From assembly GCF_003018235.1 (NCBI RefSeq), contig NZ_CP027437.1: a stretch of DNA of 64,000 nucleotides, one strand, 5' to 3'. Below, one piece after another: positions 1 through 13,695 of this stretch (position 1 is the stretch's first letter; every line of letters begins with the position of its first letter). Both the position numbers and the translations under genes were made by a program. This stretch comes from Escherichia coli (GTDB lineage Bacteria; Pseudomonadota; Gammaproteobacteria; Enterobacterales; Enterobacteriaceae). The notes beneath the pieces are model-generated. The model made no database searches. It was given only the letters and a program-made list of their open reading frames with translations, and was not told the origin of the DNA.

Positions 1-1053
1 ACGCGAAAAACCCTGCTGTGTCAGGCGCTGATGTCGGAGCCTGACTTGTTGATTCTTGATGAGCCGTTCGATGGCCTGGATGTTGCCTCACGTCAGCAGC
101 TGGCTGAGCTACTCGCCTCGTTACATCAGTCCGGTATTACTCTGGTACTGGTGCTCAATCGCTTCGATGAGATCCCGGAATTTGTCCAGTTTGCTGGCGT
201 GCTGGCGGATTGTACGTTAGCGGAAACGGGCGCTAAAGAGGAACTGCTCCAACAAGCACTCGTTGCGCAACTGGCGCATAGCGAACAGCTTGAAGGTGTA
301 CAACTGCCGGAGCCGGATGAACCTTCAGCACGTCACGCCTTACCCGCCAACGAACCGCGCATTGTGCTGAACAACGGCGTGGTTTCTTATAATGATCGCC
401 CCATTCTTAATAACCTTAGCTGGCAGGTGAATCCAGGTGAACACTGGCAAATTGTCGGGCCAAATGGCGCGGGAAAATCGACGTTATTAAGCCTGATTAC
501 TGGCGATCATCCGCAAGGTTACAGCAACGATTTGACGCTTTTCGGACGACGTCGCGGCAGCGGCGAAACCATCTGGGATATCAAAAAGCATATCGGTTAC
601 GTCAGCAGTAGTTTGCATCTGGATTACCGGGTCAGTACTACTGTGCGTAATGTGATTCTTTCTGGCTATTTTGATTCGATTGGCATTTATCAGGCCGTTT
701 CGGATCGCCAGCAAAAACTGGTGCAGCAGTGGCTGGATATTCTCGGCATTGATAAACGCACGGCTGACGCTCCGTTCCATAGTCTTTCCTGGGGGCAACA
801 ACGCCTGGCGCTGATCGTCCGCGCGCTGGTGAAACATCCGACGTTGCTTATTCTCGATGAACCACTACAGGGGCTTGATCCGCTCAATCGCCAGCTTATC
901 CGCCGGTTTGTTGATGTGCTGATTAGCGAAGGTGAAACGCAATTGTTGTTTGTTTCGCACCACGCTGAAGATGCGCCTGCCTGTATTACCCATCGTCTTG
1001 AGTTCGTGCCAGACGGCGGACTCTATCGCTATGTGCTGACAAAAATAAATTGA
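1..1053 (+). CDS. modF: ABC transporter ATP-binding protein ModF, 5'-truncated by window edge; second ABC domain complete
   Basis: Open frame from position 1; ABC motifs (LLILDEP Walker B, then GPNGAGKST Walker A of second domain); position just upstream of galE as in E. coli. Confidence 0.85.
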   Translation, partial: TRKTLLCQALMSEPDLLILDEPFDGLDVASRQQLAELLASLHQSGITLVLVLNRFDEIPEFVQFAGVLADCTLAETGAKEELLQQALVAQLAHSEQLEGVQLPEPDEPSARHALPANEPRIVLNNGVVSYNDRPILNNLSWQVNPGEHWQIVGPNGAGKSTLLSLITGDHPQGYSNDLTLFGRRRGSGETIWDIKKHIGYVSSSLHLDYRVSTTVRNVILSGYFDSIGIYQAVSDRQQKLVQQWLDILGIDKRTADAPFHSLSWGQQRLALIVRALVKHPTLLILDEPLQGLDPLNRQLIRRFVDVLISEGETQLLFVSHHAEDAPACITHRLEFVPDGGLYRYVLTKIN

Positions 1054-1221
1054 GTCGGTAGTGCTGACCGTGCCGGAGGCGGCCTAAGCGCCCTCTCCGG
1101 CCAACGGTTCGACGCATCCAGGCATGAAACCGCGTCTTTTTTTTCAGATAAAAAGCGCAATCATTCATAAACCCTCTGTTTTATAATCACTTAATCGCGC
1201 ATAAAAAACGGCTAAATTCTT

Positions 1222-1237
1222 GTGTAAACGATTCCAC
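1222..1237 (+). promoter_or_regulatory. gal operator OE (GalR/GalS site)
   Basis: Exact match to classical OE sequence GTGTAAACGATTCCAC upstream of galE. Confidence 0.85.
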
Positions 1238-1259
1238 TAATTTATTCCATGTCACACTT
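1238..1259 (+). promoter_or_regulatory. CRP site of galP1/P2 promoter region
   Basis: Sequence TTTATTCCATGTCACACTTTTCG is the textbook gal promoter CRP/-35 region; followed by TATGCTATGGTTATTTCATACC (P2/P1 -10 elements). Confidence 0.7.
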
Positions 1260-1315
1260 TTCGCATCTTTGTTATGCTATGGTTATTTCATACCATAAGC
1301 CTAATGGAGCGAATT

Positions 1316-2332
1316 ATGAGAGTTCTGGTTACCGGTGGTAGCGGTTACATTGGAAGTCATACCTGTGTGCAATTACTGCAAAACGGTCATGATGTCATCA
1401 TTCTTGATAACCTCTGTAACAGTAAGCGCAGCGTACTGCCCGTTATCGAGCGTTTAGGCGGCAAACATCCAACGTTTGTTGAAGGCGATATTCGTAACGA
1501 AGCGTTGATGACCGAGATCCTGCACGATCACGCTATCGACACCGTGATCCACTTCGCCGGGCTGAAAGCCGTTGGCGAATCGGTACAAAAACCGCTGGAA
1601 TATTACGACAACAATGTCAACGGTACTCTCCGCCTGATTAGCGCCATGCGCGCCGCGAACGTCAAAAACTTTATTTTTAGCTCCTCCGCCACCGTCTATG
1701 GCGATCAGCCCAAAATTCCATACGTTGAAAGCTTCCCGACCGGCACACCGCAAAGCCCTTACGGCAAAAGCAAGCTAATGGTGGAACAGATCCTCACCGA
1801 TCTGCAAAAAGCCCAGCCGGACTGGAGCATTGCCCTGCTGCGCTACTTCAACCCGGTTGGCGCGCATCCGTCGGGCGATATGGGCGAAGATCCGCAAGGC
1901 ATTCCAAATAACCTGATGCCATACATCGCCCAGGTTGCTGTAGGCCGTCGCGACTCGCTGGCGATTTTTGGTAACGATTATCCGACCGAAGACGGTACTG
2001 GCGTACGCGATTACATCCACGTAATGGATCTGGCGGACGGTCACGTCGTGGCGATGGAGAAACTGGCGAACAAGCCAGGCGTACACATCTACAACCTCGG
2101 CGCTGGCGTAGGCAGCAGCGTGCTGGACGTGGTTAATGCCTTCAGCAAAGCCTGCGGCAAACCAGTTAACTATCATTTTGCACCGCGTCGCGAGGGCGAC
2201 CTTCCGGCCTACTGGGCGGACGCCAGCAAAGCCGACCGTGAACTGAACTGGCGCGTGACGCGCACACTCGATGAAATGGCGCAGGACACCTGGCACTGGC
2301 AGTCACGCCATCCACAGGGATATCCCGATTAA
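1316..2332 (+). CDS. galE: UDP-glucose 4-epimerase (338 aa); start at MRVLVTGG, internal to ORF-track start
   Basis: NAD Rossmann motif GGSGYIGSH, YxxxK; RBS-like GGAG before ATG at 1316; operon context. Confidence 0.95.
   Translation: MRVLVTGGSGYIGSHTCVQLLQNGHDVIILDNLCNSKRSVLPVIERLGGKHPTFVEGDIRNEALMTEILHDHAIDTVIHFAGLKAVGESVQKPLEYYDNNVNGTLRLISAMRAANVKNFIFSSSATVYGDQPKIPYVESFPTGTPQSPYGKSKLMVEQILTDLQKAQPDWSIALLRYFNPVGAHPSGDMGEDPQGIPNNLMPYIAQVAVGRRDSLAIFGNDYPTEDGTGVRDYIHVMDLADGHVVAMEKLANKPGVHIYNLGAGVGSSVLDVVNAFSKACGKPVNYHFAPRREGDLPAYWADASKADRELNWRVTRTLDEMAQDTWHWQSRHPQGYPD
1335..1350 (+). promoter_or_regulatory. gal operator OI (internal, within galE codons)
   Basis: Exact match GTGGTAGCGGTTACAT. 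Confidence 0.85.
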
Positions 2333-2341
2333 GGAACGACC

Positions 2342-3388
2342 ATGACGCAATTTAATCCCGTTGATCATCCACATCGCCGCTACAACCCGCTCACCGGGCA
2401 ATGGATTCTGGTTTCACCGCACCGCGCTAAGCGCCCCTGGCAGGGGGCGCAGGAAACGCCAGCCAAACAGGTGTTACCTGCGCACGATCCAGATTGCTTC
2501 CTCTGCGCAGGTAATGTGCGGGTGACAGGCGATAAAAACCCCGATTACACCGGGACTTACGTTTTCACTAATGACTTTGCGGCCTTGATGTCTGACACGC
2601 CAGATGCGCCAGAAAGCAACGATCCGCTGATGCGTTGCCAGAGCGCGCGCGGTACCAGCCGGGTGATCTGCTTTTCACCGGATCACAGTAAAACGTTGCC
2701 AGAACTCAGCGTTGCGGCATTGACGGAAATCGTCAAAACCTGGCAGGAGCAAACCGCAGAACTGGGGAAAACATACCCATGGGTGCAGGTCTTTGAAAAC
2801 AAAGGTGCGGCGATGGGCTGCTCTAACCCGCATCCGCACGGACAGATTTGGGCAAATAGCTTCCTGCCTAACGAAGCTGAGCGCGAAGACCGCCTGCAAA
2901 AAGAATATTTTGCCGAACAGAAATCACCAATGCTGGTGGATTATGTTCAGCGCGAGCTGGCAGACGGTAGCCGTACCGTTGTCGAAACCGAACACTGGTT
3001 AGCCGTCGTGCCTTACTGGGCTGCCTGGCCGTTCGAAACGCTACTGCTGCCCAAAGCCCACGTTTTACGGATCACCGATTTGACCGACGCCCAGCGCAGC
3101 GATTTGGCACTGGCGTTGAAAAAGCTGACCAGTCGTTATGACAACCTCTTCCAGTGCTCCTTCCCCTACTCTATGGGCTGGCACGGCGCGCCATTTAATG
3201 GCGAAGAGAATCAACACTGGCAGCTGCACGCGCACTTTTATCCGCCTCTGTTGCGCTCCGCCACCGTACGTAAATTTATGGTTGGTTATGAAATGCTGGC
3301 AGAGACCCAGCGAGACCTGACCGCAGAACAGGCAGCAGAGCGTTTGCGCGCAGTCAGCGATATCCATTTTCGCGAATCCGGAGTGTAA
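2342..3388 (+). CDS. galT: galactose-1-phosphate uridylyltransferase
   Basis: 348 aa, HPH motif (SNPHPHGQ), operon position. Confidence 0.95.
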
Positions 3389-10251: not shown

Positions 10252-11295
10252 TTATCCACGTAGTGTAGCCGCAAAATCCAGCATACGATTGAGCGGCACC
10301 AGCGCCCTCTCTCGCAGCCTTTCATCAACATGAACCTCGTGATTGCTTCCTTCCTGTTCTAATGCCTCTGCGATGGCCTGAAGGCCATTCATGGCCATCC
10401 ACGGACAATGCGCGCAGCTGCGGCAGGTTGCACCCTCACCTGCGGTTGGTGCTTCCAGTAACTCTTTATCTGGCACCGCCTGCTGCATTTTGTAGAAAAT
10501 ACCCCGATCGGTTGCCACAATAAGCCTCTGATGTGGCAATGTTTTCGCAGCAGCGATCAGTTGACTGGTGGAACCGACCGCATCCGCCATCTCTACAATA
10601 GCTTGTGGTGATTCTGGATGCACCAGTATGGCAGCATCCGGGTATTCTTCTTGCAAGCGGGTTAACGCCTGAGTCTTAAATTCATCATGCACAATGCAGG
10701 CACCCTGCCAGCATAAAATGTCTGCGCCCGTCTGTTTTTGCACGTAACGCCCCAGATGTTTGTCGGGTGCCCAGATGATTTTTTCACCCAAACTATCCAG
10801 ATGATCAATAAGTTCGACGGCAATGCTTGAAGTTACCACCCAATCTGCCCGCGCTTTTACCGCAGCAGAAGTGTTGGCGTAGACGACGACAGTATGATCG
10901 GGATGGGCATCGCAAAATGCGTTAAATTCTTCAACAGGGCAGCCGAGATCCAGTGAACATTCAGCCTGAAGTGTCGGCATCAGAATTGTTTTTTCCGGAC
11001 TGAGAATTTTGGCGGTTTCTCCCATAAATCTCACCCCAGCGACTAACAACGTAGAAGCGGGATGCTTTGCACCGAAGCGCGCCATTTCCAGAGAATCAGA
11101 AATACAGCCACCGGTTTCTTCTGCCAGTTGTTGAATTTCGGGATCGGTATAGTAATGGGCAACCATCACCGCATTACGTTCTTTTAGCAGACGTTTTATC
11201 TTCTCGCGGTAATACGCTTTTTCATCAATGCTTAACGGCGTCGGCTTCGGGGGGAAAGGATAAATCGCCGTGTCTGGATCAAACATCACGCTCAT
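10252..11295 (-). CDS. nadA: quinolinate synthase A
   Basis: 347 aa; conserved Cys residues for 4Fe-4S cluster. Confidence 0.95.
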
Positions 11296-11367
11296 CTTAC
11301 CATCTCGTTTTACAGGCTTAACGTTAAAACCGACATGAGCGTAATATTCGCTGTTATCGGTGAAATT

Positions 11368-11385
11368 TGTTTTATATGCTAAACA
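11368..11385. promoter_or_regulatory. NadR operator candidate upstream of nadA
   Basis: Palindrome TGTTTtatatgcTAAACA in nadA 5' region. Confidence 0.6.
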
Positions 11386-11572
11386 AGATAGTCGAATGGT
11401 GGGGAAAAGTCACTCGAATTACGTATGAGATGACGAATGCCACACTTTGCGTCTTATTCCTCCGACGTAGAGTTGTTTACGCAGCAAGCGCGGAGTAAGT
11501 CATCTGGGTTAAGAATTGAAATTGAGAGATGCCTGAATAGCAAAAAAGCGCCTTTAGGGCTCTTTTTTACAC

Positions 11573-11618
11573 TGGTGGGTCGTGCAGGATGACTCGCTTC
11601 GCTCGCCCTTCGGGCCGT
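11573..11618 (-). repeat. tRNA-Lys 3'-end-derived fragment repeat, copy A
   Basis: Begins with the 16-nt tRNA-Lys 3' end (incl. CCA) then GATGACTCGCTTCGCTCGCCCTTCGGGCCG; three near-identical copies in the array. Confidence 0.6.
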
Positions 11619-11697
11619 CGCCGCGAGCGGCTCCGTTGTTTCGCTGCGCTCAATTCGAACCTGCTGCAGGTTCGAATCTTTGAGTATCGCAGATAGC

Positions 11698-11724
11698 AAA
11701 AAAGCGCCTTTAGGGCGCTTTTTT
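11698..11724 (-). terminator. intrinsic terminator at 3' end of Lys/Val tRNA operon
   Basis: GCGCC/GGCGC hairpin flanked by A-run and T-run; a second near-identical hairpin at about 11544–11567. Confidence 0.65.
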
Positions 11725-11728
11725 ACAT

Positions 11729-11804
11729 TGGTGGGTCGTGCAGGATTCGAACCTGCGACCAATTGATTAAAAGTCAACTGCTCTACCAACTGAGCTAACG
11801 ACCC
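11729..11804 (-). tRNA. tRNA-Lys (anticodon UUU), distal tandem copy
   Basis: 76-nt exact reverse complement of E. coli tRNA-Lys, ending CCA. Confidence 0.92.
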
Positions 11805-11837
11805 CTTGCGGGATTATGCTGCTTTAATCATTCAGGA

Positions 11838-11913
11838 TGGTGGGTCGTGCAGGATTCGAACCTGCGACCAATTGATTAAAAGTCAACTGCTCTACCAACT
11901 GAGCTAACGACCC
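11838..11913 (-). tRNA. lysQ: tRNA-Lys (UUU)
   Basis: Exact tRNA-Lys sequence; part of perfect 109-bp tandem unit. Confidence 0.9.
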
Positions 11914-11946
11914 CTTGCGGGATTATGCTGCTTTAATCATTCAGGA

Positions 11947-12022
11947 TGGTGGGTCGTGCAGGATTCGAACCTGCGACCAATTGATTAAAAGTCAACTGCT
12001 CTACCAACTGAGCTAACGACCC
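11947..12022 (-). tRNA. lysZ: tRNA-Lys (UUU)
   Basis: Exact tRNA-Lys sequence. Confidence 0.9.
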
Positions 12023-12070
12023 ATACGGGTGTTACCTGAAAGATTTCTACTCGGAACCAATCTTTAAAAT

Positions 12071-12141
12071 TGGTGGGTCGTGCAGGATGACTCGCTTCGC
12101 TCGCCCTTCGGGCCGTTGCTGGCGCAACGTTATCCTTCACG
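12071..12141 (-). repeat. tRNA-Lys 3'-end-derived fragment repeat, copy B
   Basis: Shares tRNA 3' end plus about 55 nt with copies A and C. Confidence 0.6.
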
Positions 12142-12168
12142 CTTAACATCTGAGTTTGATGTTAAAAT

Positions 12169-12244
12169 TGGTGGGTCGTGCAGGATTCGAACCTGCGACC
12201 AATTGATTAAAAGTCAACTGCTCTACCAACTGAGCTAACGACCC
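12169..12244 (-). tRNA. lysY: tRNA-Lys (UUU)
   Basis: Exact tRNA-Lys sequence. Confidence 0.9.
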
Positions 12245-12247
12245 GAG

Positions 12248-12323
12248 TGGTGGGTGATGACGGGATCGAACCGCCGACCCCCTCCTTGTAAGGGAGGTGC
12301 TCTCCCAGCTGAGCTAATCACCC
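12248..12323 (-). tRNA. valZ: tRNA-Val (UAC)
   Basis: Reverse complement of GGGTGATTAGCTCAGCTGGGAGAGCACCTCCCTTACAAGGAGGGGGTCGGCGGTTCGATCCCGTCATCACCCACCA. Confidence 0.92.
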
Positions 12324-12374
12324 GATACTGCGCTGGATACTACAAACTACTTCCACCGAACCCACCGTAATTAG

Positions 12375-12450
12375 TGGTGGGTCGTGCAGGATTCGAACCT
12401 GCGACCAATTGATTAAAAGTCAACTGCTCTACCAACTGAGCTAACGACCC
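12375..12450 (-). tRNA. lysW: tRNA-Lys (UUU)
   Basis: Exact tRNA-Lys sequence. Confidence 0.9.
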
Positions 12451-12452
12451 GG

Positions 12453-12528
12453 TGGTGGGTGATGACGGGATCGAACCGCCGACCCCCTCCTTGTAAGGGA
12501 GGTGCTCTCCCAGCTGAGCTAATCACCC
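12453..12528 (-). tRNA. valT: tRNA-Val (UAC)
   Basis: Exact tRNA-Val sequence. Confidence 0.92.
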
Positions 12529-12563
12529 GATACTACGCTGGATACTACAACTAACTATGTTAG

Positions 12564-12636
12564 TGGTGGGTCGTGCAGGATGACTCGACTTCGTCTCGCC
12601 CTTCGGACCGTTGCTGACGCAACGTTATCCTTCACG
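12564..12636 (-). repeat. tRNA-Lys 3'-end-derived fragment repeat, copy C
   Basis: As copies A/B with a few substitutions. Confidence 0.6.
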
Positions 12637-12663
12637 TTTTACTACCGCTTCCACCTTAGCGAT

Positions 12664-12739
12664 TGGTGGGTCGTGCAGGATTCGAACCTGCGACCAATTG
12701 ATTAAAAGTCAACTGCTCTACCAACTGAGCTAACGACCC
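12664..12739 (-). tRNA. lysT: tRNA-Lys (UUU), promoter-proximal
   Basis: Exact tRNA-Lys sequence; first gene of array. Confidence 0.92.
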
Positions 12740-12903
12740 ACTTTTTCGTTGCTTTCGGTTTGTTTGATATCCCGTGGCAACGGCGGCATATATTACTGAT
12801 TTCAGACTTGAGCGCAACAAAAATTTCGATGTAGATCACTCAACTGCTTATGATTCGCACGACACGACCAGAAATAATGCGACTTCTGGTCGTGTGTTAT
12901 GCA

Positions 12904-13695
12904 TTACATCGCGTTCAGACGTTTTTGCGCCTGTTTAGCGCCATCAGTACCAGGGTATTTACTGATAACCTGCTGGTATACGGCTTTCGCTTTTGCGGTA
13001 TCACCTTTGTCCTGCATGATGACGCCGACTTTAAACATCGCATCTGCAGCCTTTGGTGACTTCGGATAGTTTTTCACTACCGAAGCAAAATAATACGCCG
13101 CATCATCTTTTTTACCCTTGTTGTAGTTTAACTGACCCAGCCAATAATTGGCGTTTGGCAGGTAAGTTGAATCAGGGTAATTTTTGATGAAATTCTGAAA
13201 TGCCACCATTGCGTCATCCTGGCGGGATTTATCCTGCACCAGCGCAATAGCTGCATTGTAATCCGTGTTTGCATCACCGCTTTTCACCGGCGCGCCAGCA
13301 TTCGCAGTACCAGCATCAGCTGTCGGCGTCGTTGATGCCGCCGCACCGCTTTGATCGCCGCTGGTTGATTGCGCCGCTGCACCACCGCTGCTGAGGCTAT
13401 CGATCTGCAACAGGATCTGCTTTTGCCGCTCCACGACCTGATTCAGTTGATACTGATTTTCCTGAATCTGACCACGCAGGGAATCAATATCGGATTGATT
13501 ATCAGAGAGTTGTTGCTGGAGTTGGGTTAAAAGCTGGCTGTGAGCATTTGAAATACGCTCAAGTTGAGTGACGCGGTCTTCGACCGAGCCTGAGCCGACA
13601 CTACTGATTGGTGCCTGAGCAAAAGCGGCCCAGGGGGCCGCTATACCAACCAGTAACGACAGACTCAATAGTTGATGTCTGAAGTTACTGCTCAT
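12904..13695 (-). CDS. cpoB: cell division coordinator CpoB (YbgF), TPR protein of Tol-Pal system
   Basis: 263 aa; signal peptide, coiled-coil Gln-rich region, C-terminal TPR-like repeats; synteny after pal. Confidence 0.9.
   Translation of the reverse strand: MSSNFRHQLLSLSLLVGIAAPWAAFAQAPISSVGSGSVEDRVTQLERISNAHSQLLTQLQQQLSDNQSDIDSLRGQIQENQYQLNQVVERQKQILLQIDSLSSGGAAAQSTSGDQSGAAASTTPTADAGTANAGAPVKSGDANTDYNAAIALVQDKSRQDDAMVAFQNFIKNYPDSTYLPNANYWLGQLNYNKGKKDDAAYYFASVVKNYPKSPKAADAMFKVGVIMQDKGDTAKAKAVYQQVISKYPGTDGAKQAQKRLNAM

Follow-up and report, generated by a model that had tools for sequence, protein, structure and literature searches.

The lysT operon of the Escherichia coli strain analysed here ends in three identical tRNA-Lys(UUU) genes that form a perfect tandem of a 109-bp unit. 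Our reading, to which we assign a probability of about 0.85, is that a distal tRNA-Lys pair gained one 109-bp unit by repeat misalignment, and that the resulting triple is an ordinary, recurrent copy-number variant whose extra copy would be co-transcribed with its neighbours. All coordinates refer to the 64-kb stretch of DNA that was analysed (the window). The third copy is an ordinary copy-number polymorphism of a repeat-rich tRNA operon. Annotations of public reference genomes, E2348/69 among them, already show the three-copy arrangement. Its significance is mostly a matter of bookkeeping: the strain has six, not five, tRNA-Lys genes in the lysT operon. Beyond that, K-12 turns out to be unrepresentative of the species at this locus, and the one-copy and three-copy variants, almost equally rare around a two-copy mode, offer a small set of natural data on gain and loss through repeats.

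Organization and expression of the operon

Exactly eight tRNA genes were detected by ARAGORN in the whole window, all of them on the minus strand between positions 11729 and 12739. They comprise six tRNA-Lys(UUU) and two tRNA-Val(UAC) genes, the same content that a sequence-only reading of this DNA had given. String comparison revealed a single sequence for all six Lys genes and another for both Val genes, each of which matches every copy of the K-12 operon exactly. Rfam tRNA scores of 79.2 bits (Lys) and 65.9 bits (Val) lie far above the threshold of 29 for all eight genes. In the direction of transcription the order is Lys-135-Val-2-Lys-51-Val-3-Lys-146-Lys-33-Lys-33-Lys, numbers being spacer lengths in nt. 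Both the position between cpoB and nadA and the order Lys-Val-Lys-Val-Lys-Lys of the lysT operon are found. Judged by position and gene order, the locus is the chromosomal E. coli lysT operon, transcribed toward nadA (Table 1). Over 11350-12900, the window is 99.8% identical to E. coli O169:H41 (BLAST). Two other assignments were considered and rejected. The class of tRNA array units requires at least 20 tRNA genes at a density of at least 2 per kb (PMC4758250), and the window has 8. A mobile element is contradicted by the conserved chromosomal position, the number of only 8 tRNAs and a cpoB-nadA interval that is free of mobility genes.

Table 1. Features of the lysT operon and its flanks, in window coordinates
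Feature	Position	Strand	Basis
nadA, 347 aa, downstream flank	10252-11295	-	ORF; start region matches K-12 nadA; annotation of homologous loci
Second terminator copy, one stem mismatch	11537-11572	-	156-bp repeat with 11693-11746, 96% identity; -13.4 kcal/mol
RtT element downstream of first terminator	11573-11698	-	Rfam RF00391, 51 bits
First intrinsic terminator hairpin, directly after last tRNA-Lys	11693-11728	-	-19.1 kcal/mol, z = -6.5; K-12 has same position and sequence
tRNA-Lys(UUU), promoter-distal tandem copy	11729-11804	-	ARAGORN; Rfam 79.2 bits; identical to other five Lys
33-nt spacer UCCUGAAUGAUUAAAGCAGCAUAAUCCCGCAAG	11805-11837	-	Unstructured; fold -1.9 kcal/mol, z = -0.15
tRNA-Lys(UUU), middle tandem copy	11838-11913	-	ARAGORN; Rfam; string comparison
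33-nt spacer, identical to 11805-11837	11914-11946	-	Tandem Repeats Finder; string comparison
tRNA-Lys(UUU), first tandem copy, K-12 lysZ position	11947-12022	-	ARAGORN; Rfam; string comparison
146-nt lysY-lysZ spacer with RtT-like element	12023-12168	-	Rfam RF00391 match; K-12 comparison
tRNA-Lys(UUU), lysY position	12169-12244	-	ARAGORN; Rfam
tRNA-Val(UAC), valZ position	12248-12323	-	ARAGORN; Rfam
tRNA-Lys(UUU), lysW position; 51-nt spacer to valZ (12324-12374)	12375-12450	-	ARAGORN; K-12 comparison
tRNA-Val(UAC), valT position	12453-12528	-	ARAGORN; Rfam
135-nt lysT-valT spacer with RtT-like element	12529-12663	-	Rfam RF00391; K-12 comparison
tRNA-Lys(UUU), lysT position, first operon gene	12664-12739	-	ARAGORN; Rfam
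cpoB-lysT interval, presumed promoter and leader region	12740-12903	-	K-12 sequence comparison
cpoB/ybgF, 263 aa, upstream flank	12904-13695	-	ORF; annotation of homologous loci

The promoter-distal part of the operon, 11729-12022, is reported by Tandem Repeats Finder as a repeat with period 109, 2.7 copies, 100% matches, 0 indels and a score of 588. The unit consists of a 76-bp tRNA gene and a 33-bp spacer; a third identical tRNA gene completes the block. String comparison, Tandem Repeats Finder and a separate repeat search agree that 11729-11837 and 11838-11946 are identical, as had been noticed at first reading. The duplicated unit corresponds to one repeat plus the intervening sequence, with seamless junctions and no extra bases, and a perfect 109-bp tandem cannot have arisen by chance. 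Since the three tandem copies are identical, none of them can be singled out as the extra one. Nor can tRNA-seq separate them, because the mature tRNAs and both spacers are the same.

The K-12 lysT operon contains five Lys and two Val genes, one tRNA-Lys fewer than the window, as the sequence-only reading had stated. The two operons have in common the position between cpoB and nadA, identical Lys and Val sequences, the order of the first five genes, and a tail of terminator, RtT element and terminator. Their spacers (135/2/149/3/146/132 in K-12 versus 135/2/51/3/146/33/33 in the window) reveal that they are more than one unit apart, which the sequence-only reading had missed. The 33-nt spacer of the window equals, except for one SNP, the last 33 nt of the 132-nt lysZ-lysQ spacer of K-12, whose other 99 nt are an RtT-like element ending in ATCCTGCACGACCCACCA. 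Likewise, the 51-nt lysW-valZ spacer is the 149-nt K-12 spacer minus a 98-nt RtT-like element. Two RtT-like spacer elements of K-12 are thus absent from the window.

The three tandem genes lie upstream of the first terminator, whose hairpin is followed by U residues in the predicted fold. In the second terminator copy GGGCTC replaces GGGCGC (plus strand), by which the predicted stability drops from -19.1 to -13.4 kcal/mol; this SNP is common to the window and O169:H41. A terminator scan missed these real hairpins because their A/U tracts pair, and direct folding was used in its place. Upstream of lysT, the window and K-12 do not differ over 174 nt; a consensus promoter scan found no sigma-70 consensus site. 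In K-12, the lysT operon is transcribed as one polycistronic RNA with a functional terminator, and processing by RNase P begins with removal of this terminator and proceeds in 3' to 5' direction by cuts at the 5' end of each tRNA (PMC4176162). All three copies are located upstream of the first terminator, and the spacer between them is unstructured and normal in most E. coli. The polycistronic precursor should therefore include the extra gene, and RNase P should release it like its neighbours. To our knowledge, tRNA-Lys(UUU) is the only lysine isoacceptor of the cell. The tRNA-Lys gene dosage would be raised by one copy, with a phenotypic effect that is probably small.

Copy number and recurrence in E. 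coli

Copy number was determined by megablast against 5,426 complete E. coli genomes with natural or synthetic queries. The E-value limit of each search was set between the score of a full-length match and the best score of the other copy numbers, and could be passed solely by a full-length ungapped match. Plain BLAST of the whole operon was discarded for counting, as overlapping pieces were joined and a genome one unit shorter still yielded 100% coverage. The exact 294-bp block Lys-33-Lys-33-Lys is present in 36 genomes (0.66%), always with 100% identity and with three tRNAs under the match. A synthetic query with four tandem copies matched 0 of the 5,426 genomes, which is corroborated by the fact that all 36 three-copy matches carry exactly three tRNAs. 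At least two Lys genes in tandem (Lys-33-Lys) occur in 3,199 genomes, the K-12 type Lys-132-Lys in 1,793. With 100 nt of window flank on each side of the query, one distal copy was found in 43 genomes, two in 1,270 and three in 21. Variation of copy number between strains, suspected from the sequence alone, is thereby established within the same flanks. The species is thus predominantly in the two-copy state with a 33-bp spacer, and the K-12 arrangement is that of a minority. The window is a rare +1 variant, and its -1 counterpart is about as rare.

In the sampled genomes, the smallest operon content is 4 Lys + 1 Val and the largest 6 Lys + 2 Val. K-12, BL21(DE3), ATCC 25922 and O169:H41 carry 5 Lys + 2 Val, MS1050 carries 4 Lys + 2 Val, and O157:H7 PV15-279 carries 4 Lys + 1 Val. 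Gain and loss of tRNA genes in E. coli have reportedly been described by Withers et al. 2006. It is common for E. coli strains to differ by one tRNA gene copy in either direction (PMC4539685). Plasmid-typed records appeared among the matches in two places for the Lys-33-Lys block and in one for the two-copy flanked query. When one genome per species was searched with the 33-bp spacer junction, three Escherichia records alone matched, once each, and gave no evidence of a triple across species.

A first alternative is an assembly artefact, in which the 109-bp repeat was mis-counted and the true number of tandem Lys units is two or some other number. The 294-bp array is perfectly repetitive and cannot be spanned by reads shorter than about 300 nt, and all database genomes with the flank haplotype of the window have two copies. 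Against this stands the same triple in 36 complete assemblies, among them the reference E2348/69; the triple is therefore a genuine biological state of the lysT locus. In general experience assemblers collapse short tandems more often than they expand them, and the contiguous 64 kb resolves the other local repeats as well (205-bp and 156-bp units, RtT copies). We consider a mis-count unlikely. As a general rule, short-read assemblies should be distrusted at this locus, because it is a nest of short repeats: units of 109, 205 and 156 bp and RtT-like elements flanked by an 18-bp repeat.

The triple occurs on at least five operon backgrounds. In the window it is combined with the spacers 135/2/51/3/146. 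ETEC4069 has 135/2/-/146, one Val-Lys unit being missing (5 Lys + 1 Val). ECL27977, RM8385 (O103) and 97-3250 have 135/2/149/3/146, THO-010 and O55:H7 DEC5D 35/2/51/3/146, and E2348/69 and BEN2908 35/2/51/3/48. In an alignment of the distal region the tandem is invariant, and the flanks carry differing SNP haplotypes. O127:H6 E2348/69, APEC BEN2908, O55:H7 DEC5D, O26 97-3250 and O103 RM8385 are annotated with 6 Lys + 2 Val and contain the same 294-bp block (100% identity) in the equivalent place ahead of the terminator. They differ from the window in having spacers of 35 versus 135, 48 versus 146, or 149 versus 51 nt. Because these other spacers and the flank SNPs differ, the reference strains represent independent occurrences and not the same allele. 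The genome comparison shows that the three-copy change arose independently in other E. coli lineages. The 36 genomes are not 36 events: E2348/69 is represented by four assemblies, ECL27977 and ECL27829 by two each, and ETEC4069-71 by three. With single strains counted more than once, the genomes stand for fewer than 36 independent events, though clearly for more than one.

Recurrence might also reflect selection. One may speculate that the distal lysT operon serves as a fast-mutating lysine-tRNA "dosage dial", with gain and loss of the unit and of RtT-like elements being recurrently selected in certain ecological lineages such as STEC, EPEC, APEC and ETEC. If so, the three-copy state would be adaptive and not neutral. 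We regard such a dial as quite improbable. The narrower proposal, that tRNA-Lys(UUU) dosage was selected in the three-copy lineages and that mutation pressure alone does not account for the recurrence, is very improbable. It could draw on the repeated gain on at least five backgrounds and on the increase of tRNA abundance with tRNA gene copy number (stated, with citations, in PMC4539685). However, the triple is confined to 36 of 5,426 genomes with no large fixed clade seen, loss to one copy is about as frequent as gain (43 versus 21 genomes in the same flank class), and none of the 5,426 genomes has four copies. With gain and loss about equally rare, no genome above three copies and no large fixed clade, nothing suggests a strong phenotype. 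The pattern fits mutation and drift around two copies.

Origin of the third copy

Among three-copy genomes, the best match to the window flanks is 99.2%. Two-copy genomes reach 99.7%, and 196 of them match at 99% or more. O169:H41 combines the private flank SNPs of the window (e.g. GGGCTC...ACAC, about 11556-11575) with two copies, and the closest relatives over 25 kb (99.5%) all have two copies. Because the flank-sharing O169:H41 and the closest 25-kb relatives both have two copies, the comparison points to a gain of the third copy within the window's own lineage, the sampled relatives of which are at best 99.5% identical over 25 kb. The region 12900-37800 is the one in which the best match among the 5,426 genomes is only 99.5%; a single piece spanning 80% or more of it is found in only 1,121 of them. 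Genes annotated under this match are, among others, methylaspartate mutase (glmE/glmL), class I fumarate hydratase and an AtuA-family protein next to cydA. The region thus looks accessory in part, and the source lineage is absent from the comparison set.

Import of a three-copy allele by homologous recombination, or an ancestral triple that was lost in the relatives, would be another source of the array. Recombination is frequent in E. coli, and the array is invariant between lineages, so that endpoints inside it would leave no trace. An imported allele is difficult to reconcile with flanks that, on both sides and up to the array, carry the SNPs of the two-copy strain O169:H41 and are unlike those of any three-copy genome (best match 99.2%). 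The triple is also scattered and rare (0.66%), and two copies are found in all sampled relatives; retention of an ancestral triple would require many parallel losses. Both versions have a very low probability.

Gain by misalignment, the reading we prefer, would start from two promoter-distal tRNA-Lys(UUU) genes with a 33-bp spacer. The two identical 76-bp genes, 109 bp apart, may misalign, and one 109-bp unit would then be added, either by unequal exchange between sister strands or by slippage or template switching that occurs at replication without RecA. The product would be three tandem Lys genes in an operon of 6 Lys + 2 Val, and the one-copy deletion variant would be a product of the same process. 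Both the presumed progenitor state and the reciprocal deletion exist within the window flanks (two copies, n=1,270; one copy, n=43). Gain and loss variants around a predominant two-copy state are what reciprocal misalignment predicts. A unit that consists of the repeat plus the intervening 33 bp, seamless junctions, and the presence of both n-1 and n+1 states are the signature of misalignment between neighbouring tRNA genes.

The recent unequal crossover that had been proposed on sequence-only grounds is supported, though by another argument than the one offered with it. Its recency follows from the distribution among genomes. Identity of the units is a weak guide to age, because all three-copy genomes examined share one and the same unit; the 185-bp Lys-33-Lys block as a whole has an identity of 99% or more in 3,198 out of 3,199 genomes. 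As to the mechanism, a crossover is indistinguishable by sequence from slippage or template switching. In E. coli, closely spaced direct repeats of less than 200 bp are often deleted, and also expanded, by RecA-independent routes (PMC7145654). As the lysT repeats are shorter than 200 bp and close to each other, the RecA-independent routes would be at least as likely as a classical crossover. Assays with 101-bp repeats in pSTL likewise involve very close direct repeats below 200 bp and yielded both expansion and deletion (PMC7145654). They differ from the window in that its repeats are natural chromosomal tRNA genes and that the events are deduced from population data.

RtT-like elements and neighbouring repeats

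Three stretches of the locus match Rfam family RF00391 above the gathering score of 45: 12564-12732 (58.2 bits), 12071-12237 (57.8 bits) and 11573-11698 (51 bits). Stretches homologous to the downstream RtT element are annotated as "RtT sRNA" by PGAP in other genomes. As in the tyrT-tyrV-rtT locus (RtT RNA, RF00391), the lysT elements include a duplicate of the upstream tRNA's 3' end; each RtT-like element shares its terminal 18 nt (ATCCTGCACGACCCACCA) with tRNA-Lys. Unlike the repeats of interest here, they lie outside the duplicated 109-bp unit and are relevant solely as further repeat substrates. RtT is mentioned in a mobilome-sequencing preprint and in an Erwinia paper, with nothing on the lysT locus in either.

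The RtT-like elements measure about 98 nt, and their presence varies by spacer and strain, giving spacers of 135 versus 35, 149 versus 51, 146 versus 48 and 132 versus 33 nt. In the window they are present at 12023-12168 and 12529-12663 and, relative to K-12, absent at 12324-12374 and 11805-11837/11914-11946. Because it is bounded by an 18-nt direct repeat, such an element can be precisely lost and possibly gained.

Two further repeats adjoin the array. Tandem Repeats Finder reports a 205-bp Val-Lys unit at 12169-12550 with 1.9 copies and 98% identity. ETEC4069 and O157:H7 PV15-279 have a single Val gene, consistent with loss of one such unit. On the other side, at 11537-11746, a 156-bp direct repeat of the terminator and a stub of the tRNA 3' end brackets the RtT element. 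The unit of terminator and RtT is single in the window and K-12, double in O17_K12a and MS1050 and triple in THO-008, and constitutes a second copy-number polymorphism that adjoins the first. The same logic of misalignment explains the RtT-like, 205-bp and 156-bp polymorphisms. Within the downstream RtT element, the minus strand at 11640-11680 contains a near-perfect palindrome, GATTCGAACCTGC/AGCAGGTTCGAAT, which is built from the tRNA T-arm sequence GGTTCGAATCC.
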